Origin: a virus
Reading direction: 5' to 3' (one strand)
UHGV virus genome: UHGV-1373020
Length of the DNA: 48,743 nucleotides
Below, piece after piece: positions 1,642 through 43,073 of this stretch. How positions within the stretch are numbered: the stretch's first letter is position 1; every line of letters begins with the position of its first letter. The position numbers and the translations under genes were made by a program. Below the pieces are notes generated by a model, which was not told the DNA's origin, searched no databases, and saw nothing but the letters and a program-made list of their open reading frames with translations.

Positions 1642-3052
1642 ACGCCTCTCCGCGCTGGCAATTGAAAAGTTGGAGGCGCAGATTGATGACGCAATGACAG
1701 ATGTTGCAGAGTCAGCAATCTTTGGTATCTGCGACATGCAGAAAAACGTCATCAAGCGGTTAAGGATGACCGCTACTGGCGTTGATGATGTGACCAATGC
1801 AACCACTCATGCCGACCACCTGATTCCAGCAAAACTGGAGCGCCTGCTTTACCCGAAGCCGTGGAAGGTTGTCTATGGTGGTCGTGGGTCGGCAAAGACT
1901 CGCACAGTGTCGACAATCCTCACCGAGTCGGCAAGATTTAAATCAGAGCGTATCGGGTGCTTCCGCGAGATTCAGCAATCAATTGAAGACTCCAGCTATC
2001 AGGAGTTGGTTGACGAGATTGATCGCAAAGGAGAATCAAAAGAGTATCGTTGCATTGATGGCAAGATTACCCACAAGAAGACTAAATCAAAGTTCAGGTT
2101 CCGTGGCCTTTATCGCAACGTGACTGGCGTGAAGGGTTTTGCTGGCATCACAAAGGCGTGGATTGAGGAGGCCGAAAACGTCAGTCAGGCATCGTGGGAC
2201 ATCCTTGAGCCTACCGTGCGTAACCCGGGGGCTGAAATATGGGTCACTTTCAACCCCAATAAAGAAACAGACGCCACATGGACTCAGTGGGTGGCTCCGT
2301 GGCATGACAAAATGGTAAACGGCATTTACGAGGATGATGAAATACTCATCATTGAGTGTAACTGGACCGATAACCCGTGGATGACAGAGGAACTAATCCG
2401 CTCAAAAGATAAAATGAAGCGCGTTGATTTCGACCGCTATATGTGGATATGGGAAGGCAAATTTAACAAACGCAGTGACGAACAGGTATTCGGCGGCAAA
2501 TGGCGCATTGATAACTTCGAGGTTAAACCTGAATGGCACGGCCCATACTTCGGGATGGACTTCGGGTTTTCCACCGATCCTACCGCAATGGTTGAAGTGT
2601 ACATCGAAGAGTCACCAGGCGGACGGCGCAACATTTATATTAATCGCGAGTACGGAAAGGTCGGACTTGAGATTACCGATACGCCAGCCGCGATGGAGCA
2701 ATCATTCACGATGGCTAAGCGTGCGCGATGGTATGCGGACTGCGCGCGCCCCGAAACCATAAGCCACATCAAGCGTTCTGGATTTGACATTCACCCATGC
2801 ACAAAATGGCCAGGCAGCGTTGAGGATGGCGTAACGTGGCTGCGCGGATGTGACAGCATTGTCATCCACGAGCGATGCAAGGAAATGCAGAATGAAGCGG
2901 TAATGTACAGCTACAAGGTTGATAAGCTTACCGGAAACGTTCTGACTGATATTGTCGATGCATATAACCATTACTGGGATGCGGTTCGCTATGCACTAAA
3001 TGACCACATCGTCCAACGCGGTAGCGGTATGCTAATCCGGCGCAGGAGATAA
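1631..3052 (+). CDS. terL: terminase large subunit
   Basis: Walker A YGGRGSAKT, with a C-terminal nuclease-like region. GGGGAGG lies 7 nt upstream of the ATG at 1631. The tracked ORF starts at 1610 upstream. Confidence 0.9.
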   Translation: MARKRLSALAIEKLEAQIDDAMTDVAESAIFGICDMQKNVIKRLRMTATGVDDVTNATTHADHLIPAKLERLLYPKPWKVVYGGRGSAKTRTVSTILTESARFKSERIGCFREIQQSIEDSSYQELVDEIDRKGESKEYRCIDGKITHKKTKSKFRFRGLYRNVTGVKGFAGITKAWIEEAENVSQASWDILEPTVRNPGAEIWVTFNPNKETDATWTQWVAPWHDKMVNGIYEDDEILIIECNWTDNPWMTEELIRSKDKMKRVDFDRYMWIWEGKFNKRSDEQVFGGKWRIDNFEVKPEWHGPYFGMDFGFSTDPTAMVEVYIEESPGGRRNIYINREYGKVGLEITDTPAAMEQSFTMAKRARWYADCARPETISHIKRSGFDIHPCTKWPGSVEDGVTWLRGCDSIVIHERCKEMQNEAVMYSYKVDKLTGNVLTDIVDAYNHYWDAVRYALNDHIVQRGSGMLIRRRR

Positions 3053-3053
3053 A

Positions 3054-3080
3054 AATAAAGCCCTCAATTGAGGGCTTGGT
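3054..3080. terminator. bidirectional hairpin terminator
   Basis: AAGCCCTC-aatt-GAGGGCTT. Strong T-run on the - strand, weaker on +. Confidence 0.55.
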
Positions 3081-3233
3081 TCATTTAATCAACGCTCTGC
3101 GACCAAGCTCAGCAATCCATTCCGCTGCATCCTCTATTTTGTTGAACTCATAAAGATGTTTATTGTCTTCCATGACATAAAACAGGATGCGACCAAGTTT
3201 ATTTTTCTTTGCGCTAAATTTAACATCTTTCAT
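3081..3233 (-). CDS. hypothetical protein (50 aa), convergent with terL
   Basis: Reverse-strand ORF MKDVKFSAKKNKLGRILFYVMEDNKHLYEFNKIEDAAEWIAELGRRALIK with a GGAGG SD 6 nt upstream. Absent from the ORF track because it is under 60 aa. Confidence 0.45.
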   Translation of the reverse strand: MKDVKFSAKKNKLGRILFYVMEDNKHLYEFNKIEDAAEWIAELGRRALIK

Positions 3234-3261
3234 GTTTTACCTCCTTCCGCTTCATGAGTTC

Positions 3262-3290
3262 AATCTACATCACCACCATATCCACGTCAA
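3262..3290 (-). promoter_or_regulatory. sigma70-like promoter TTGACG-N17-TAGATT for the small - strand gene
   Basis: Reverse complement reads TTGACG tggatatggtggtgatg TAGATT. The -10 lies inside the conserved 13-mer. Confidence 0.5.
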
Positions 3291-3325
3291 CATTTATTAT
3301 TGTTGATAAATCCGCACCACCACAC

Positions 3326-3354
3326 TTGACCAATCTACACCGAGCGCATAGTAT
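3326..3354 (+). promoter_or_regulatory. sigma70-like promoter TTGACC-N17-TAGTAT heading the early small-gene operon
   Basis: Exact 17-nt spacing. The spacer contains AATCTACAC, and ATCTACATCA follows directly. Confidence 0.55.
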
Positions 3355-3384
3355 ATCTACATCAGGTTTATCGGAGATAACACT

Positions 3385-3591
3385 ATGCGCAGCTATGCAG
3401 GATTCACGCAGGAGGAGAAAGAACAGGTTTATTCACTGGCACGAGCTGGTGTGCCTGATGAGGTGATTTGCCGTCGGTATGACATCGACGAGGATTTCCT
3501 GCTGCGCGTTCTGGATGATGTTTTCGTTAGCCTGCAAGAGAAGCGCGGGTATAAAGGTATCTGCTGCAAGAATGATTTTTTGAGAGGGTGA
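3385..3591 (+). CDS. hypothetical early protein (68 aa)
   Basis: GGAG lies 9 nt upstream of the ATG. Confidence 0.55.
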   Translation: MRSYAGFTQEEKEQVYSLARAGVPDEVICRRYDIDEDFLLRVLDDVFVSLQEKRGYKGICCKNDFLRG

Positions 3592-3595
3592 AAAC

Positions 3596-3793
3596 ATGAA
3601 AAGCATAATGAAAAGAATGGTACGGGCATATGATAAAGAACTGTGCGTATTCAGAAATATGCGTAATAGCAAGAAAAAGCGCAGAGCTGCGGCGCGGCAG
3701 TTAGCATCATATTATGATGAAGATGTTGCAATTGAATGCCAGGAAGCCGCTGATGAGTTTGCTCGTGATGATATTTACTATATGGTTAACTGA
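3596..3793 (+). CDS. hypothetical early protein (65 aa, basic and acidic halves)
   Basis: SD GAGAGGGTGAAAAC precedes the ATG. Confidence 0.55.
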   Translation: MKSIMKRMVRAYDKELCVFRNMRNSKKKRRAAARQLASYYDEDVAIECQEAADEFARDDIYYMVN

Positions 3794-3811
3794 TTTTGAG
3801 AGGGTGATGTG

Positions 3812-3982
3812 ATGATTGTTATTGAAGACGAAACCAAAACGCCAATGTGCACAATAGCGGTTGATTTCAATTCTGACCCAATGATTACTCAGGGTCACGA
3901 CACTATTATTATTGACAAACACCAAGCCGAGCAGCTAATCGAAGTCCTGCAACGCTGGTTTAATGGTGAGGAGATTGAGTAA
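3812..3982 (+). CDS. hypothetical early protein (56 aa)
   Basis: MIVIEDETKTPMCTIAVDFNSDPMITQGHDTIIIDKHQAEQLIEVLQRWFNGEEIE. The SD GAGAGGGTGA duplicates the upstream junction. Absent from the ORF track. Confidence 0.5.
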   Translation: MIVIEDETKTPMCTIAVDFNSDPMITQGHDTIIIDKHQAEQLIEVLQRWFNGEEIE

Positions 3983-4188
3983 TGAGCGTTTATTTTTACT
4001 GCGGTCACATCGAGCGACAAGGAAGCGTGGCGAGTGTCGGTAGTTTTTGTGGATTATCTATTGGCACCGATGCGGTTAGCGCATATGAGGACGCTATGAG
4101 GGCACAAGTGAAAGAAATTCAGGCAATCACTGAAAGCGGCGCTTTTAATCTTTCTGTTATTTTTGATAAATTCGAAAAGGTGGAGTGA
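3982..4188 (+). CDS. hypothetical early protein (68 aa)
   Basis: TAATG stop/start overlap with the upstream gene. Confidence 0.5.
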   Translation: MSVYFYCGHIERQGSVASVGSFCGLSIGTDAVSAYEDAMRAQVKEIQAITESGAFNLSVIFDKFEKVE

Positions 4189-4406
4189 TGAAAGCCGTCA
4201 AAACAATACTGTTCTGCATCATCAACCCGCACCTGATTGTGATGCTGATATTCGCTGCCATGCTTATTGGCGCAAGAAAGTCGCTTTATTATATCTCCGA
4301 CAAACTGGATGACGCGGCGCGTTACATTCAGAAGATTGACCATAAACTCGGGTCGAAGTCATACCCCGCATGGTTCAGAACGCTTGTTGATGACGAGGTG
4401 GAGTGA
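4188..4406 (+). CDS. hypothetical membrane protein (72 aa)
   Basis: GTGATG overlap with the upstream stop. One TM helix ILFCIINPHLIVMLIFAAMLIG. Confidence 0.5.
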   Translation: MKAVKTILFCIINPHLIVMLIFAAMLIGARKSLYYISDKLDDAARYIQKIDHKLGSKSYPAWFRTLVDDEVE

Positions 4407-4567
4407 TGGCGCTATTCTGGTCGTTCTGGATTCCATTGAACTTTATGTTCTGGTGGGCTATGGCTGCCGGAGTGAATGAACCGAGATGGATTCACTTTAT
4501 AGTTGGTTCACTTTTCGCTGTGGTAACTGGTGTTGTGCCATGCTTGTTGTATCAATATTTCAAATGA
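4406..4567 (+). CDS. hypothetical membrane protein (53 aa)
   Basis: MALFWSFWIPLNFMFWWAMAAG...CLLYQYFK with two hydrophobic helices. ATGA-type overlap with the upstream gene. Absent from the ORF track. Confidence 0.45.
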   Translation: MALFWSFWIPLNFMFWWAMAAGVNEPRWIHFIVGSLFAVVTGVVPCLLYQYFK

Positions 4568-4573
4568 AGGTGA

Positions 4574-4771
4574 GTGATGACAAGAAAAGAGGTTCACGAG
4601 TATTCTATTGCAGCCAGAAAGCGCGTCGAAGATGTATGGACGAATCATGGGTTACGCAGCAATAGAGCTAAATTGGTTGCAAAATGCCATCAAGTCGTAA
4701 GTGGTGACAGGATTGAGTGTTACGCGTTTAATCAGTGGATGAAGTCTGGCGTCGTAAGAGAGGTGAAATGA
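4574..4771 (+). CDS. hypothetical early protein (65 aa)
   Basis: SD AAGGTGAGTG precedes the ATG. Confidence 0.55.
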   Translation: MMTRKEVHEYSIAARKRVEDVWTNHGLRSNRAKLVAKCHQVVSGDRIECYAFNQWMKSGVVREVK

Positions 4772-5019
4772 TGGTAGTTATGATTTTTGGTCTTATCGTT
4801 ATGGTGTTCATTGCTTATATGCTTGTTAGGAATAACGCGGTTGCTGATGCGAGGATTGGGTTTATAAAGTTCTTCTATGAAGAAGACCCTAATGGATATG
4901 CCTCTGGCAAGCGATTCCATGAGGCGCTACCAAGCTACGATGAGATGCTGTGGAAGTTCTGGGTGTGGCCTTTATCAAAATTCTATCCGGCATACAGAAA
5001 CCGAAATCGCAACAAGTGA
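4771..5019 (+). CDS. hypothetical membrane protein (82 aa)
   Basis: N-terminal TM MMVVMIFGLIVMVFIAYMLV. The start overlaps the upstream stop. Confidence 0.5.
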   Translation: MVVMIFGLIVMVFIAYMLVRNNAVADARIGFIKFFYEEDPNGYASGKRFHEALPSYDEMLWKFWVWPLSKFYPAYRNRNRNK

Positions 5020-5022
5020 CCA

Positions 5023-5056
5023 TGCTATAATCCCTCCATCGTGAGGGATTTTTTAT
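5023..5056 (+). promoter_or_regulatory. extended -10 (TGcTATAAT) fused to the 5' half of a terminator hairpin (ATCCCTC-catcgt-GAGGGAT-TTTTTT)
   Basis: The TGn-TATAAT at 5023-5031 overlaps the 5' stem of the hairpin at 5030-5049, so initiated transcripts would lack the 5' arm. Confidence 0.4.
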
Positions 5057-5062
5057 TGGTGA

Positions 5063-7412
<2,350 letters not shown>

Positions 7413-38551: not shown

Positions 38552-38986
38552 TCAATCAACACCTGAAAGCAAGCCAAAATAGAAAAGCGTGGCTTTTTTT
38601 AGTTGTTCAGCACCGTATGCGATGGCTGCGAACTTGCCTTCTCTATGCGCTCTCTCAAGAAATTTACGTTGGTCTTTTGATACCTGAGATTTCGTTCTAT
38701 CTTCTTTCTTAAGCTCCATTACTGCGCAAGAATGAGCAACACCATCGCTTAGTATAATTACGTCGCTCACTCCGCTTTTTACGCCCATTTTTTTTCTCTT
38801 TATAACGAACTGCGCACCGCTTTTTGTCCCTGTCTCATTTGGAACATGAAACCATATAACATCAGGGAAGTGATAATCCATCCACAACCCATAAGTCATC
38901 TGTTCCGTTTCCTCTGAATTACACTCCCCACGATAACCGCTATCAAATACCCATATCCCGCTATCAAGCTGCTTCACTTTGCTCAC
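38552..38986 (-). CDS. VRR-NUC domain nuclease
   Basis: PD-(D/E)XK-type motif DVIILSDG...AVMELK. Confidence 0.7.
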   Translation of the reverse strand: MSKVKQLDSGIWVFDSGYRGECNSEETEQMTYGLWMDYHFPDVIWFHVPNETGTKSGAQFVIKRKKMGVKSGVSDVIILSDGVAHSCAVMELKKEDRTKSQVSKDQRKFLERAHREGKFAAIAYGAEQLKKATLFYFGLLSGVD

Positions 38987-40577
38987 CTGTAAAATCTTTT
39001 CTGTGGATTATGTCGCGACCTTTATCGTTGATACGATGCGTGATGCGTTTTGGCGCTTTAATCAATCCAGCATACATCATGAATTGCTTAGCATTCTGGC
39101 ATTTCAGGATTTTCCCTGCCATTGACTTATCATCAAGGTGAGGAAAGACCGCCTTTGCCTTGAACATGTTTTTCATGTGAGTTGCGCCGCCATAAGGGTA
39201 GAAAACTTCGTTAGCCCAGCCCTCTCTTCCATCACAACGATTAATCCAGTAGCGATACAAAATACCCTCTCCATCCTTCGTCAACTGGACTTTGAAGTCC
39301 ATAACATCAGCCCATTCGTTGTCGGTATACGCACGCTCATTCAGTGCCGCATTCGGGTCGCGCAAAACATGATCGCAATGTCGGCAATAACGTGCAGTAG
39401 GGTCGTTTTTAGTGCCGCAGCCATCATCAAAAATACGGATGCCGTGCTTATCAAAACCGCAACGGATATAACTGAAAAACTCCTCGCAGCGACCATCTGG
39501 CGACAATGCATCTTTGCCAATGCAGCGGCGCGCATATGGACTGTTCATTGTTCCGCACTTAGGACACGGAACCTGTTCACCACTGCGTTTTGAACGTTGC
39601 GCTTCGGCCTCTTCCAGAATCGGGTCTTCATACAGCTGACCAAGTTCAAACATCGTGCCTGAGAAATCAAGAACCAGATGGTCTTCTTTATGATACCCGG
39701 CATCAATTTGCTCTTTCTTCAGCAAGCGCATTCCGCGACCAAGCAACTGAACAAGAAGGGTGAGTGACATTATTTTTCGTAATATTACAGATGTATCCCA
39801 AAGTGGGATGTTGACGCCGGTCGTCAAACAACCAATCTGGAAAACATATTTAATCTTGCCAGTGTATGCGTCTTTTAACGCCTTGCGTCTGGCTTTCATG
39901 CCCATATCTTCGGTGACAATCGCGTAACTCCCTTCAGGTAAATATTTTGCCGCCTCCTGACAGTGCTTCTTGCCAGCGCAAGTAATCAATATGCCATTTC
40001 TGTTTTTTGTCAGCTCCATAACCTTAAGCATGATTTTCTGCGTCAGCGTACCTTGCTCAAGGATTTCTTTCTGCATCTGCTTGAGCTGCTCGGAAGTAAA
40101 ATCCTGCGTGCCATCGCTTCCTGATGCCTCAAATGCTGACAGATCGTAATGCAAATCATCAATGTCATGCAGCCCAAAAATCGTCGGAACAAGGAACCCA
40201 ATATCAACAAGATATTTGGTATCGATGTTTACTATTTCATGTTTCCAGTAAGCACCCTTAATCGAGTCGGTGCCACGAAACGGACTACCTGTGTATCCAA
40301 TAACAATGACATCGTGACCGTATTTAGCCTTACATCTGCGGTTAAGTTCAGTCATGATGACGCCATATTGCGTTTCAGGACTTTCGCTTACCACGTCCTC
40401 CCAGTTCATCTGGTGGCAGTTATGAGCCACGAATCCGTTTGCAACAAAATTGTGATGGATAGGCATCTCTATATCCCACACCATCTCATCACCAATTTCA
40501 CTTATTGACTCGATTACTTTTGATTTTGTATTCCACGCCATCTTCCATGTGGTCAGCAACTCTTTTAAAAAACTCAT
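38964..40577 (-). CDS. C-terminal piece of the intein-interrupted SF2 helicase: intein C-segment then C-extein
   Basis: The intein C-segment (40419-40577) carries block F/G ...VIESISEIGDEMVWDIEMPIHHNFVANGFVAHN. The C-extein (38964-40418) starts CHQ and has motif VI QLLGRGMR and a C-terminal multi-CxxC region. Confidence 0.75.
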   Translation of the reverse strand: MSFLKELLTTWKMAWNTKSKVIESISEIGDEMVWDIEMPIHHNFVANGFVAHNCHQMNWEDVVSESPETQYGVIMTELNRRCKAKYGHDVIVIGYTGSPFRGTDSIKGAYWKHEIVNIDTKYLVDIGFLVPTIFGLHDIDDLHYDLSAFEASGSDGTQDFTSEQLKQMQKEILEQGTLTQKIMLKVMELTKNRNGILITCAGKKHCQEAAKYLPEGSYAIVTEDMGMKARRKALKDAYTGKIKYVFQIGCLTTGVNIPLWDTSVILRKIMSLTLLVQLLGRGMRLLKKEQIDAGYHKEDHLVLDFSGTMFELGQLYEDPILEEAEAQRSKRSGEQVPCPKCGTMNSPYARRCIGKDALSPDGRCEEFFSYIRCGFDKHGIRIFDDGCGTKNDPTARYCRHCDHVLRDPNAALNERAYTDNEWADVMDFKVQLTKDGEGILYRYWINRCDGREGWANEVFYPYGGATHMKNMFKAKAVFPHLDDKSMAGKILKCQNAKQFMMYAGLIKAPKRITHRINDKGRDIIHRKDFTGEQSEAA

Positions 40578-41561
40578 CCTGCGCTTCCTCATCAAAAATA
40601 TTTACATAAAACATTTCGCGTTTTTTCGTTCCGCCGATGTAAGAATTAACTCGCGCTCCATTTAATCCAAGAAAATCATTCAATGCATTAGCTACTTCCC
40701 AACATTCACCCTCCCTGAATGCCTCAGTATGAATACATACCTGCCTGTACTTGCCATCACTTATTGTTGAATGCCCATCATCACCAAAATAAACAGCCCA
40801 GCCAACTTCGTTTAACTCCCTGCATATCTTTCCTATGCTGTACCCATTTGCTGAGTCACCATATTTCTCAGCGTACCCGTCAAGTATCTTTGTGCATGAC
40901 GTCCTGACCTGAAACCATTTGTCACCGAATCCTGGATTATCTCTTTCCCTGTATGCTGCATTAAGTTTTTTGAATCTTGCCGCCTTACACAGAGCGTGAT
41001 CTTTATTCCCCATGTTCCACATTAGTCTGTGAGTTCCCCTTTTCGTGTTCTTAATCAGGCACCCATCACCAGCAAGAGCAGCGAGTATGTTTTGATGCAA
41101 GAAGTCATCAATAACAAGGTCGCTATCAACGGTTGAATTATGATGACCAGACCTAAAATCAACATAGTAACCGTAAGGATTTTCCAGTAATGCACTCAAC
41201 CCTTTGCCCGTGTGCGGAAAAACCTTTTCGCCACAGCCACACTTGCACGAAGGAGCTTTGTCATAAATCTGTCCGACGAGCCATCTAACGACAGAGTCAT
41301 TCCAGCCTTTAGTTTTCCCGCTTCTACCCAGCAGCCGTTTGAATAAAGTTTGTGTGTACTCGTGCATTTTATTTCCTCACCGCCTCTTAATTTAATTGAT
41401 GATACACTCTTTATACCATTAGTAAATACTCTTTTAGGTTTGTGGTACATCCATTCACCAGTAACTTCATCTAAGCATTTGATTTCTTTATTTATTAAAC
41501 TATCGTCATCAATTCTCACCCACCCATCACTCGTTAATATCAGTGCATCACCAGTCAAGCA
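40419..41561 (-). mobile_element. LAGLIDADG-type intein inserted in helicase motif II (DE | CH)
   Basis: Block A starts at the Cys directly after DE. HNF...HN is followed by Cys. Removing it gives the spliced junction FVLMDE-CHQMNW, a DECH box. Confidence 0.75.
40498..41367 (-). CDS. LAGLIDADG homing-endonuclease domain of the intein, in a frame shifted from both splicing domains
   Basis: Two dodecapeptide-like motifs about 95 aa apart (ILAALAGDGCL and WAVYFGDDGHS), preceded by a CKCGCG zinc-knuckle-like DNA-recognition region. A GAGG SD lies 8-12 nt upstream of the ATG at 41367. Confidence 0.65.
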   Translation of the reverse strand: MHEYTQTLFKRLLGRSGKTKGWNDSVVRWLVGQIYDKAPSCKCGCGEKVFPHTGKGLSALLENPYGYYVDFRSGHHNSTVDSDLVIDDFLHQNILAALAGDGCLIKNTKRGTHRLMWNMGNKDHALCKAARFKKLNAAYRERDNPGFGDKWFQVRTSCTKILDGYAEKYGDSANGYSIGKICRELNEVGWAVYFGDDGHSTISDGKYRQVCIHTEAFREGECWEVANALNDFLGLNGARVNSYIGGTKKREMFYVNIFDEEAQDEFFKRVADHMEDGVEYKIKSNRVNK

Positions 41562-42044
41562 CTCATCCATAAGAACAAAACGAGGGCAAAAATCGGAAAG
41601 TGCACCTTTAGAAAGTAAATTACCTGACTCGTCCTTCTTATCGAAAAGACCATTTATTATTGTTCCCTCAGTCCCAGCAATAAGTGGATATGCCGTTGAC
41701 TTTCTGCCAAGAGCAGCGCTAAAAAGTGAGTTTTTCACACTCAGATTCCATAGCTCTTCCGCATCCTGCTCAATAATTTCTGGCTGTCTTGCAATAACAA
41801 GCCCTTCCCACCCCATATCCTGAAAGCGTCGCGCAATCATGGCAATCATGATCGTCTTACCAGCACCTACTGATGCAGTCACAAAACTTGGTTTCGGGTC
41901 TTTGCCAAACTTGCGGATAACTTCAGCCGTCTTTTCATAAACCAGCCACTGATATGGTCGCGGCTCAATTTCCCCTGTATGAACAACTGACCGCAATTTA
42001 TCTATGTCAAGTTCCGCAATCATTGCGTCTATTTTATGCGTCAT
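41196..42044 (-). CDS. N-terminal piece of the helicase: N-extein then intein N-segment
   Basis: The N-extein (41562-42044) has Walker A SVGAGKT and ends with FVLMDE of motif II. The intein N-segment (41199-41561) has block A CLTGDALIL and block B TSTHKLY. The last 30 or so aa look out of frame. Confidence 0.75.
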   Translation of the reverse strand: MTHKIDAMIAELDIDKLRSVVHTGEIEPRPYQWLVYEKTAEVIRKFGKDPKPSFVTASVGAGKTIMIAMIARRFQDMGWEGLVIARQPEIIEQDAEELWNLSVKNSLFSAALGRKSTAYPLIAGTEGTIINGLFDKKDESGNLLSKGALSDFCPRFVLMDECLTGDALILTSDGWVRIDDDSLINKEIKCLDEVTGEWMYHKPKRVFTNGIKSVSSIKLRGGEEIKCTSTHKLYSNGCWVEAGKLKAGMTLSLDGSSDRFMTKLLRASVAVAKRFFRTRAKG

Positions 42045-42060
42045 AGCAAATAACCTTTGT

Positions 42061-42090
42061 TGATGTTTCTACGTCAATTAGCTTATACTC
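42061..42090 (+). promoter_or_regulatory. putative promoter TTGATG-N18-TATACT for the primase gene
   Basis: The spacer carries a TTTCTACGTCAAT 13-mer variant, with CAATCTACACC downstream. Confidence 0.4.
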
Positions 42091-42119
42091 AATCTACACC
42101 AACAATCAAGGGTCAATTT

Positions 42120-43073
42120 ATGAGATACGACTGGAAAGACATTGAGCCAAAAATGCTCGGAAATTGGCAGGCCGCCATCATGTCTATCGTCAATGTGGAT
42201 AGCAGAGTTTTCAATGGCAAGCACCAGCCGTGCCCGTCATGTCTTGGCAAAGACAGGTATCGCTTTGATGACAACTTCGAAACAAAGGGCGATGGAGGAG
42301 CAATCTGCAACCAGTGCGGTTCCGGCAGCGGCATGAACTGGCTGATGAAACTCTCTGGCATGAGTTTTCCAGAAGCACTGGAGGCTCTGGGAGGATTCCT
42401 GAATATGCATCCACGCGAAAAGCTGGAGGCAATCAGGAAGGAGTTACCGAAGATAAATTACAATGATGACTTCATAACAGAGCATGAAGTCGCTGCAATC
42501 ATGGCCAAAACGACTCGTGTCGCGATGAATGAGTGGAGTTTGATAAATGGTATTGGTTGCGACATTAACGTCGCCAGAGGTAAATCTGGAGAGCTTATGG
42601 CGGTTGAGATGATGCGCGCTGACACAATGAAGCAGTGCAACGTGGCATTCATTGGCATGGATGGCGATGCATTCAGAACATTTTTCCGCGCAGGATACAA
42701 CAAGGACTCAGCCATCAACGGTAAACTCACGCGTGGTGCGATAAGCCCAATCGGAGAAGATAACGGTAAGTTCATTTATCTGGTATCTGATTATGCCGAT
42801 GCATGGAAATGCCATTACTTCACTGGTGCGCATGTCTGGTGTTGCTGGTCTCCTGAAAACATGTGGGAAGTGGTGCGTTCTGTTAGCGATGAAACGAAAG
42901 CGAGATTGCGTTGCATAGTTAATTATAAATTTGACGAACTTTGCGCTGCGGAAAACGCAGGACTACCGGTGATGCTGCCTGATGATGCGAACACAATCAG
43001 GATGGCGAAGAGAATCAGAAGAAAAATTTATGCCGCTGGCGATCTGATAAAGAAAATGTCAGTCAATAGATAA
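42120..43073 (+). CDS. DNA primase (P4-alpha-type zinc ribbon plus Toprim)
   Basis: HQPCPSCLGKDRYRFDD...GGAICNQCG zinc-binding domain, then an acidic Toprim-like core. Start is taken at 42120. The tracked ORF starts at 42057. Confidence 0.7.
   Translation: MRYDWKDIEPKMLGNWQAAIMSIVNVDSRVFNGKHQPCPSCLGKDRYRFDDNFETKGDGGAICNQCGSGSGMNWLMKLSGMSFPEALEALGGFLNMHPREKLEAIRKELPKINYNDDFITEHEVAAIMAKTTRVAMNEWSLINGIGCDINVARGKSGELMAVEMMRADTMKQCNVAFIGMDGDAFRTFFRAGYNKDSAINGKLTRGAISPIGEDNGKFIYLVSDYADAWKCHYFTGAHVWCCWSPENMWEVVRSVSDETKARLRCIVNYKFDELCAAENAGLPVMLPDDANTIRMAKRIRRKIYAAGDLIKKMSVNR

Follow-up and report, generated by a model that had tools for sequence, protein, structure and literature searches.

Dassa et al. 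(2009, PMC2677866) described 26 metagenomic loci in which split inteins flank a free-standing endonuclease gene, and proposed that such a gene invades a mini-intein and supplies an upstream stop and a downstream start. In the parts of that paper drawn on here, the 3' end of the endonuclease gene overlaps the open reading frame (ORF) of the C-terminal intein half (IntC) by 6-69 base pairs, regulatory hairpins are reported for some endonuclease genes, and the endonucleases are GIY-YIG or Vsr-like, with no mention of LAGLIDADG. Gosselin, Arsenault and Gogarten (bioRxiv 10.1101/2025.01.02.630785) described actinophage inteins whose endonuclease lies out of frame or antisense, the types listed in the portion of the preprint used here being EndoVII-like in frame 3, antisense LAGLIDADG, antisense Vsr-like and in-frame HNH. 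The same portion warns that such elements resemble 'decaying' inteins and that annotation misses them. The locus analysed here is comparable with both. It lies in the 48,743-nucleotide (nt) virus genome UHGV-1373020 (below, the window means this whole stretch), where a minus-strand gene for a superfamily 2 (SF2) DExH helicase is split between the E and C codons of motif II (DE/CH, the slash marking the junction) by an inserted element of 1143 nt (41561..40419, minus strand).

We read this locus as very probably a fractured gene, that is, a naturally split intein together with a free-standing, overprinted homing endonuclease gene, with the helicase restored by trans-splicing and the element spread by homing. 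The helicase is most likely functional, and the element appears to be intact rather than a damaged intein. An earlier note on the same DNA had recognized an intein in a helicase gene and an endonuclease part in a different frame. Both observations are borne out, the first by the splicing residues and a colinear intein-less homolog, the second by an endonuclease ORF in the -1 frame. The note had also ascribed the C-side frame break to an indel-prone tract or a read error, and this part is not supported, since the same frames are found in every related locus recovered. Its suggestion of genuine mutation holds insofar as the features are genuine rather than read errors; they are not, however, lesions of a once-continuous intein of this genome.

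Layout and conservation of the interrupted gene

The ORFs carrying the N- and C-terminal helicase parts (N-ORF and C-ORF) lie in one frame (42044 and 40595 are both 2 mod 3), and the endonuclease ORF lies in the -1 frame (41367 is 0 mod 3). After 161 amino acids (aa) of helicase, ending in ...FVLMDE, the N-ORF continues with CLTGDALILTSDGWVRIDDD...CTSTHKL...KAGMTLSLDG, a 27-aa tail and a stop. From its ATG the C-ORF reads MSFLKELLTTWKMAWNTKSKVIESISEIGDEMVWDIEMPIHHNFVANGFVAHN, then CHQMNWEDV... and the remaining helicase. Between the stop of the N-terminal intein half (IntN; 41198..41196) and the IntC ATG at 40577, the intein frame of the window contains nine stops.

Among sequenced phages the nearest, with about 93% identity in the flanks, are Skatevirus-like ones of Salmonella and Escherichia; their helicase is uninterrupted (...ILIDE/CHQMNW...). 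In Salmonella phage vB_CECAV_048 (L001) it is colinear across the insertion point (...ILIDE/CHQMNWEDV...), and the first 36 nt after the junction are identical between the window and this intein-less allele. A megablast search of the whole gene against GenBank phages returned 184 matching records, none with more than 64% query coverage and all from intein-less relatives; the phage of the window itself is absent from this set. The element is present in only seven GenBank phage records, those of Escherichia phages ES and AN_ECEAS (the latter L002, PP944860.1, classified in Drexlerviridae) and of five Pectobacterium phages of the Ymer group.

The three-ORF layout, with the same relative frames, was seen in all three of the GenBank records inspected (AN_ECEAS, Ymer and Amona), and also in metagenomic contigs L005-L012, in the five IMG/VR contigs L013-L017 and in the remote locus L018. 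Endonuclease identity falls to 38% among the metagenomic and IMG/VR loci with this layout; in L018 IntN is 35% identical, and a check at the DNA level gave the same three ORFs in the same frames. Across loci IntN measures 118-125 aa, the endonuclease 277-298 aa and IntC 50-56 aa, 6-13 stops close the intein frame between the halves, and every lineage has an element length divisible by 3. Four independently assembled copies, 93-94% identical to the window, have no indels over 1143 nt and contain the same T6A4 tract.

That tract is the homopolymer to which the earlier note had drawn attention at the C-side switch. It is indeed there (coding strand 40572..40563, that is, + strand TTTTAAAAAA at 40563-40572), and deletion of a single T does, arithmetically, join ...QDEF to LKELL.... 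The same deletion would cut the last predicted helix of the endonuclease (residues 260-273 of the AlphaFold2 (AF2) model) and would also remove the conserved ATG and Shine-Dalgarno-like run of the IntC half. The T6 run is broken in L006 (TTC TTT), a silent change for the endonuclease that replaces Phe with Ser in the IntC leader, and it is absent in the Pectobacterium phages (L003), L005, L016 and L017, where the frames are unchanged. The placing of the N-side switch near 41260-41300 agrees with codon-phase analysis of nine lineages, which gives endonuclease codons ~25-32 (about 41295..41270), and there is, as had been stated, no homopolymer longer than 3 within 41260-41300. The same analysis locates the 3' switch of constraint at endonuclease codons ~260-270, roughly 40590..40560. 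There is no single switch point, since the ORFs overlap by 172 nt and 80 nt with both frames conserved across the overlaps, and each protein goes on meaningfully beyond the place where the other takes over.

An exhaustive phmmer/HMMER search with IntN gave 336 matches at an expectation value (E) <=1e-3; a word-index protein search with IntN alone gave none, which reflects the limit of the word index in view of those 336. Proteins of 236-313 aa encoded by N-ORFs and ending just after IntN form 23 clusters (50% identity representatives), and the three inspected in full (P0009, P0021 and P0037) consist of the helicase N-part plus IntN. In most of these clusters the IntN match ends 1-15 residues from the C-terminus (28 in P0037 and 51 in P0028), and in nearly all of them the stop comes 10-25 residues past the tail motif LLRAxxAV. 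Homologs of the endonuclease make up eight clusters in a large protein database, all eight free-standing and 167-286 aa long. The comparison with relatives that the earlier note had named, a search for contiguous orthologous inteins, thus found none: the endonuclease homologs are all free-standing, and the close IntN relatives all end in a stop.

Public annotation describes the three pieces as 'hypothetical protein', 'homing endonuclease', 'DNA helicase' and even 'minor tail protein', and none of the records names an intein. In AN_ECEAS (PP944860.1) the endonuclease ORF, 2694-3548, is unannotated and falls in the gap between coding sequences (CDS) 2056-2865 and 3517-5190. In phage ES (OR466728.1, 30817-31954) the features under the match are a 'hypothetical protein' and a 'minor tail protein'.

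Selection, splicing residues and the endonuclease

All three parts of the element are under purifying selection: outside the overlaps the ratio of nonsynonymous to synonymous substitution rates (dN/dS) is 0.07 for IntN, 0.08-0.18 for the endonuclease and 0.10 for IntC. A stop-free ORF of 289 codons in an alternative frame is very unlikely to arise by chance, and this one is conserved in more than 10 lineages at a dN/dS of ~0.1. In the region that encodes only the endonuclease, variability among nine lineages is 0.59 at its own third codon positions versus 0.38 and 0.31 at positions 1 and 2. Over endonuclease codons 1-~25 the most variable phase is the third position of IntN, and the endonuclease frame is dominant from ~codon 30; the dominant phase changes about '...QIYDKAPSCKCGCG' and turns to that of IntC about '...FFKRVADHME'. 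Overall variability is lowered in both overlaps, and the blocks GCTCCTTCGTGCAAGTGTGGCTGTGGC and CACATGGAAGATGGCGTGGAATACAAAATC (the latter in overlap 2) are nearly invariant at all three codon positions, as expected from two simultaneous coding constraints.

The catalytic residues of a class-1 intein (Cys1, the T and H of block B, the penultimate His, the terminal Asn and Cys+1) have been retained by all lineages, even at an IntN identity of 35%. Cys1 stands directly after the N-extein (...DE/CLTGD...) in the window and in all full-length loci; by pattern it was found in 13 of the 23 N-ORF clusters, the other 10 not fitting the search pattern. Block B, T-x-x-H, reads C-T-S-T-H in the window and CTxxH in 23/23 N-ORF clusters and all loci. 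Block G reads ...FVAHN/CHQ in the window, and every locus has AHN/C or VHN/C, with Cys+1. A phmmer search with IntN retrieves bona fide DnaX inteins at E~1e-13, and the IntC core aligns with the C-terminal regions of DnaX inteins. The tail of IntN, SSDRFMTKLLRASVAVAKRFFRTRAKG (window 41199-41279), carries a net charge of +7, compared with none on the core of IntN and -4 on that of IntC. It should be noted that conservation of LLRAxxAV is confounded by the codons of the endonuclease motif CxCGCG on the same DNA, and says nothing firm on the function of the tail.

The endonuclease models as a complete monomeric LAGLIDADG enzyme like I-SceI and I-WcaI, with a two-lobed alpha-beta-beta-alpha-beta-beta-alpha fold. 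The AF2 model has a predicted local distance difference test score (pLDDT) of 78.5, with residues 85-275 mostly at pLDDT 80-98. Its last helix, residues 260-273 (block-mean pLDDT 89-94), spans the T6 tract. The N-terminal ~85 residues are modelled with low confidence; they include CxCGCG, which begins at codon 41 in 11/11 lineages. Foldseek searches with the modelled core gave I-WcaI at E=2e-10 and a template modelling (TM) score of 0.73, and I-SceI at TM 0.71 (TM normalised by target length), whereas the intein-borne PI-PfuI and PI-SceI are much farther from the model (TM 0.29-0.33). The sole PDB sequence match is 6x1j (I-WcaI). Against the Pfam model LAGLIDADG_2 the window protein scores 22.1 bits (cut-off 25), and 8/8 family members match, the best at E=3.9e-7; LAGLIDADG_3 is matched by only 2/8 members (E=0.019). 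The glycine and acidic residues at the centre of both LAGLIDADG motifs, together with the final His of the second (Table 1), are invariant in eight sequences, and the protein ends in ...HM-x-x-G-[VM]-E-Y-K-I, an ending like that usual for LAGLIDADG_2 enzymes.

Both downstream ORFs have a conserved start. Upstream of CxCGCG, the ATG at 41367 is the one in-frame start of the endonuclease found in every lineage; five lineages have no other ATG, GTG or TTG there, and in all lineages it is preceded by gaggaaataaaATG or an equivalent purine run. In the IntC ORF every lineage has an ATG 16-22 codons ahead of 'AWNTK', preceded by a GAGG/AAGGA-like run. In the alignment this ATG is found at either of two places, and this speaks for selection on the start codon as such. 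No regulatory hairpin was detected at either start, the endonuclease region being no more structured than shuffled sequences and the IntC region less (z=+1.5).

A further potential start lies at window 41196-41199 (coding strand GGTTGAGT), where TTGA combines a TTG codon in the endonuclease frame with the TGA that ends the N-ORF. In a 94%-identical copy, gene-calling programs begin the endonuclease at that TTG (P0001, 233 aa), and in other lineages at an internal ATG (MPHSS...); both of these starts exclude the invariant CxCGCG motif. A shorter endonuclease isoform, made by termination-reinitiation at TTGA, is possible.

Table 1. Positions of the helicase parts, intein halves, endonuclease ORF and signals in the window
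Feature	Coordinates	Strand	Description	Basis
N-ORF	42044..41196	-	helicase N-part, then IntN 'CLTGDAL...SLDGSSDRF...RAKG' and stop	
N-extein	41562..42044	-	helicase N-terminal part, 161 aa, ends ...FVLMDE, first half of DExH motif II	Pfam ResIII E=1e-7; colinear with intein-less Skatevirus helicase ...ILIDE/CHQ... (L001)
IntN	41199..41561	-	121 aa: Cys1, block B C-T-S-T-H (residues 66-70), core to ~SLDG, 27-aa basic tail	translation; homolog searches
IntN stop TGA	41198..41196	-		ORF list
LAGLIDADG endonuclease ORF	41367..40498	-	289 aa + stop	ORF list and translation
C-ORF	open from 40595, ATG at 40577, end 38964	-	'...MSFLKELLTTWKMAWNTKSKVIESISEIG...FVAHN/CHQMNW...'	
IntC	40419..40577	-	53 aa: ~14-19-aa leader, then core WNTKSKVIESISEIGDEMVWDIEMPIHHNFVANGFVAHN	match to Intein_splicing model positions 102-155
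C-extein	38964..40418	-	helicase C-terminal part, 484 aa + stop, starts CHQMNW, second half of DExH	Pfam Helicase_C and zinc-ribbon matches
Overlap 1	41196..41367	-	IntN 3' part and endonuclease 5' part in two frames	172 nt; 166-184 nt in all lineages
Overlap 2	40498..40577	-	endonuclease 3' end (...DEFFKRVADHMEDGVEYKIKSNRVNK, stop) and IntC ORF 5' end (MSFLKELLTTWKMAWNTKSKVIESISE) in two frames	80 nt; 68-92 nt in all lineages
Shine-Dalgarno-like GAGGA	41374..41378	-	6 nt before endonuclease ATG (41367..41365), within IntN codons G-E-E	lineage alignment
Shine-Dalgarno-like GAGGA	40586..40590	-	8 nt before IntC ATG (40577..40575)	lineage alignment
C-x-C-G-C-G motif	41230..41247	-	endonuclease codons 41-46; same DNA is (A)SVAVA in IntN tail	invariant in alignments
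LAGLIDADG motif 1	41056..41088	-	ILAALAGDGCL; invariant G100 D101 G102	invariant columns
LAGLIDADG motif 2	40771..40794	-	VYFGDDGH; invariant G195 D196 D197 G198 H199	invariant columns
T6A4 tract	40563..40572	-	F-F-K in endonuclease frame, F-L-K in IntC frame; not a frameshift site	sequence; lineage comparison

The C-terminal third of the helicase (window 38964-39900) has two zinc-ribbon-like motifs at C-ORF residues ~343-411 (Pfam Zn_Ribbon_1, DZR, Zn_ribbon_RanBP, DUF7577). Gene order around the helicase is that of the intein-less Skatevirus relatives. A 144-aa ORF (38552-38986, minus strand) overlaps the 3' end of the helicase by 23 nt and matches, in position and similar size, a VRR-NUC protein annotated in vB_CECAV_048. 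Upstream of the helicase, a divergent 338-aa ORF with Cys-rich (CxxC) motifs (42057-43073, plus strand) takes the position of the annotated DNA primase of the relatives. Both are candidates for these functions.

Proposed route to an intact helicase and its rivals

We propose that ordinary translation would yield three polypeptides from the locus, namely the helicase N-part fused to IntN, the free-standing I-SceI-like endonuclease, and IntC fused to the helicase C-part. Both downstream starts lie inside a neighbouring coding sequence: the endonuclease would be translated in the -1 frame from an ATG and Shine-Dalgarno-like run internal to IntN, and the IntC fusion from an ATG and run of its own internal to the 3' part of the endonuclease gene. 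The two intein halves could associate and trans-splice, giving an intact helicase of ~645 aa with the DECH box restored; the ligated protein would contain the junction peptide ...FVLMDECHQMNWEDV... / ...FVLMDECHQMNWEDVVSESPETQYGVIMTELNR. The endonuclease, for its part, would cut intein-less helicase alleles of co-infecting phages, the candidate target predicted in L001 being ...CTTATTGACGAA/TGCCACCAGATGAAC..., and repair would copy the whole element in (homing). Trans-splicing, cleavage and homing are what we infer from the conserved catalytic residues, from insertion in the DExH box of a probable replicative helicase and from the precedent of Dassa et al.

Several points speak against this account. 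The endonuclease ATG lies within codons constrained by IntN (K/T-C), and its conservation may be partly a by-product. The Pfam intein models score below their curated cut-offs (Intein_splicing 21.8 and 26.2 bits versus 35.8; PT-HINT 23.1 versus 27.7). IntN bears a basic tail of 27 aa and IntC a leader of ~14-19 aa, either of which may affect association of the halves. Finally, the points at which constraint switches fall where a contiguous intein would change frame, which, together with a length that is a multiple of 3, also fits a contiguous intein with two frameshifts.

We would also suggest, with somewhat less than even confidence, that the window belongs to a sizeable undescribed family of naturally split class-1 inteins in the DExH boxes of SF2 helicases, comprising at least 23 clusters (50% identity) from cultured siphophages of E. 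coli, Salmonella and Pectobacterium and from metagenomes, with an I-SceI-type LAGLIDADG gene overprinted on both halves. In such a family the 27-aa IntN tail and the IntC leader could be functional and not mere side products of the overprinting, for example by aiding association of the halves or by coupling expression of the endonuclease and the helicase.

It is improbable, in our estimate, that the gene is split as described and its halves do not splice, so that the helicase works as a two-piece non-covalent complex held by the intein halves, or the halves are relics and a substitute helicase has taken over. Splicing here is predicted from sequence, the extra tail and leader might hinder it, and functional genes-in-pieces have a precedent in Aeh1 nrdA, which is split by mobE without an intein (cited in the part of PMC2677866 drawn on here). 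However, all catalytic residues are retained in every lineage even where IntN identity has dropped to 35%, the dN/dS of IntN and IntC is 0.07-0.10, and an unspliced complex would carry ~170 aa of intein inside motif II.

It seems very improbable that the element is a contiguous, canonical intein whose LAGLIDADG domain is joined to both halves in a single polypeptide by programmed frameshifting, -1 near 41270-41295 and +1 at T6A4. Such an intein would account for the switch of codon-phase constraint exactly at both putative shift zones, and also for a shared frame of the N and C halves together with an element length divisible by 3 in every lineage. A +1 slip could, in principle, take place on a UUU UUU A run. 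One canonical -1 heptamer in the N-ORF frame, G_GGA_AAA, does occur within the overlap, at window 41314-41320 (coding strand, IntN codons A-G-K). It is present in 5/10 lineages, which can be counted in favour of frameshifting; it is missing in the other five and lies upstream of residues still under IntN-frame selection, and we judged it incidental. There is no X_XXY_YYZ slippery heptamer common to all lineages, and the structure of the RNA at both switch zones equals that of shuffled sequences (z=0.04 and 0.58; single-sequence minimum free energy). Since the heptamer is not conserved, structure is not in excess and both downstream ORFs have their own conserved ATG with a Shine-Dalgarno-like run, programmed double frameshifting is unsupported. 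The T6 run that the +1 shift would use is broken or absent in L006, L003, L005, L016 and L017, the modelled fold of the endonuclease runs on through the supposed +1 site, and the enzyme is of the free-standing I-SceI type (TM 0.71-0.73) and not of the intein type (0.29-0.33).

We can practically dismiss the idea that an intein once continuous in this genome was broken by recent inactivating indels, or only seems broken through errors of sequencing or assembly, so that it and with it the helicase would be a pseudogene or mis-sequenced: the T6A4 tract at the C-side switch, where removing one T would fuse the frames, does invite this explanation, but the same frames recur in every related locus recovered, across laboratories, assemblers and hosts, and are kept where there is no homopolymer, the four close copies are free of indels, the intein frame is closed by 6-13 stops, dN/dS is ~0.1 in all parts, and no contiguous ortholog was found among the endonuclease homologs and IntN relatives. 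Sequencing error as such was rejected on the four independent, near-identical copies without indels. A canonical bifunctional in-frame intein was ruled out by the -1 frame of the endonuclease and by the stops in the intein frame of all lineages.

Mobility, origin and comparison with known systems

The intein parts and the exteins of these loci have diverged to different degrees. Between the window and AN_ECEAS, protein identity is 37-44% in the exteins and 69% in IntN, 67% in the endonuclease and 74% in IntC; between the window and L015 the exteins are 32-33% identical, IntN 66% and IntC 73%. The opposite is seen between AN_ECEAS (L002) and L010, both Drexlerviridae-like contigs, where the nonsynonymous rate (dN) is 0.018 and 0.043 in the exteins and 0.12-0.27 in the intein parts, a contrast which suggests that the element was replaced or independently acquired in closely related phages. 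Such discordance between intein and extein, with the sporadic distribution of the element among close relatives, is the pattern expected of a homing element. Comparison of the window halves (41199-41561 and 40419-40577) with P0032, P0036, P0038, P0039 and P0041 further suggests that an intein may have jumped between unrelated NTPase genes (DnaX and helicase) by way of the shared Walker B 'IDE'/'CH'. A jump via a shared motif has been proposed for terminase-to-Cas4 inteins in the portion of bioRxiv 10.1101/2025.01.02.630785 used here.

As to origin, both the I-SceI-like character of the nuclease and the occurrence of related mini-inteins at the same DE/CH site lead us to favour a free-standing endonuclease gene that invaded a mini-intein. 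The opposite course, in which a canonical in-frame intein acquired compensating -1 and +1 frame changes, would fit the multiple-of-3 length found in all lineages and the position of the nuclease at the canonical insertion point. We consider this course less likely, given a nuclease that resembles I-SceI and not the intein type.

If our account of the locus is right, what looks like a damaged intein is to be reread as an intact mobile element, and public annotations would be corrected accordingly. An I-SceI-type nuclease at the usual insertion point, with DE/CH mini-inteins as the nearest contiguous relatives, supports the route by which a free-standing endonuclease invades a mini-intein. Long dual coding on both sides has persisted through deep divergence, endonucleases being as little as 38% identical. 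For protein engineering, the locus offers candidate split inteins in easily grown coliphages and dozens of diverged natural variants. The split inteins gp41-1, NrdJ-1 and IMPDH-1 reportedly trace to the fractured genes of the 2009 metagenomic survey, and the first two are said to be widely used. Should the family exist as suggested, it would capture a stage in the merging of inteins with free-standing endonuclease genes and would supply new mesophilic split inteins for protein ligation.

We found no published account of this split helicase intein family in a literature coverage that was incomplete, so that an earlier description elsewhere is possible; the paper on the genus Ymer mentions neither an intein nor an endonuclease. 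The loci of Dassa et al. are alike in arrangement, as far as the parts of that paper drawn on here go. There too a replication gene of likely phage origin is broken at the intein, IntN and IntC are on separate ORFs of the same strand with the endonuclease ORF between them, and the IntC ORF begins within the 3' end of the endonuclease gene, which provides its initiator codon. The differences lie in the variant and not in the arrangement: an I-SceI-like LAGLIDADG enzyme here, GIY-YIG or Vsr-like enzymes there. The host gene here encodes an SF2 DExH helicase, whereas those described in the same parts are gp41, NrdA/J, IMPDH, DnaE, ligase and terminase. Only 3' overlaps are described there, while the present element has in addition a 5' overlap of 166-184 nt, with the endonuclease start inside block B of IntN. 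It also occurs in cultured enterobacterial and Pectobacterium siphophages and not solely in marine metagenomes.

With the actinophage inteins (bioRxiv 10.1101/2025.01.02.630785, same portion) the present element shares an endonuclease in a frame other than that of the splicing domain, read as invasion by a free-standing gene, and evidence of continued horizontal transfer. In those inteins, however, the intein frame appears to stay open and contiguous, while here it is closed by 6-13 stops and the intein is split; a same-strand LAGLIDADG gene in the -1 frame, as found here, is not among the actinophage types listed.

The closest contiguous relatives are cyanobacterial DnaX (DNA polymerase III tau/gamma) inteins and the mini-inteins or degenerate inteins at DE/CH of SF2 helicases, with 35-39% identity in IntN and E down to ~1e-13. 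The DnaX junction, VYVIDE/CLTGDSL...GLLVHN/CHM, lies like that of the helicase element at the Walker B 'DE'/'CH', and these inteins resemble the split one in their start, CLTGDSL..T..G..RIDD, and their end, HNFVANGLLVHN. They differ in being encoded by single ORFs, as mini-inteins of 133-201 aa or as inteins with long linkers (in which no LAGLIDADG motif is seen by eye), and in having no overlapping endonuclease gene; DnaX is, moreover, another host protein. They are not orthologs.

Like I-SceI and I-WcaI, which are monomeric LAGLIDADG_2 enzymes of mitochondrial group I introns, the endonuclease has two motifs in one chain, and the folds correspond (Foldseek E 2e-10 to 9e-9, TM 0.66-0.73). It differs from them by an identity of 15-18%, by the extra N-terminal region of ~85 aa with its invariant CxCGCG, and by residing within an intein and not an intron. 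The bifunctional inteins PI-SceI and PI-PfuI also have a LAGLIDADG nuclease at the usual insertion point between the N- and C-terminal splicing blocks; here, unlike there, the nuclease is out of frame and a separate polypeptide, and its model is distant from theirs in fold. It is thus the combination of a same-strand -1 gene of I-SceI type, a split intein, long overlaps on both sides and an SF2 DExH host gene that appears to set this locus apart from both the fractured genes of Dassa et al. and the actinophage inteins.

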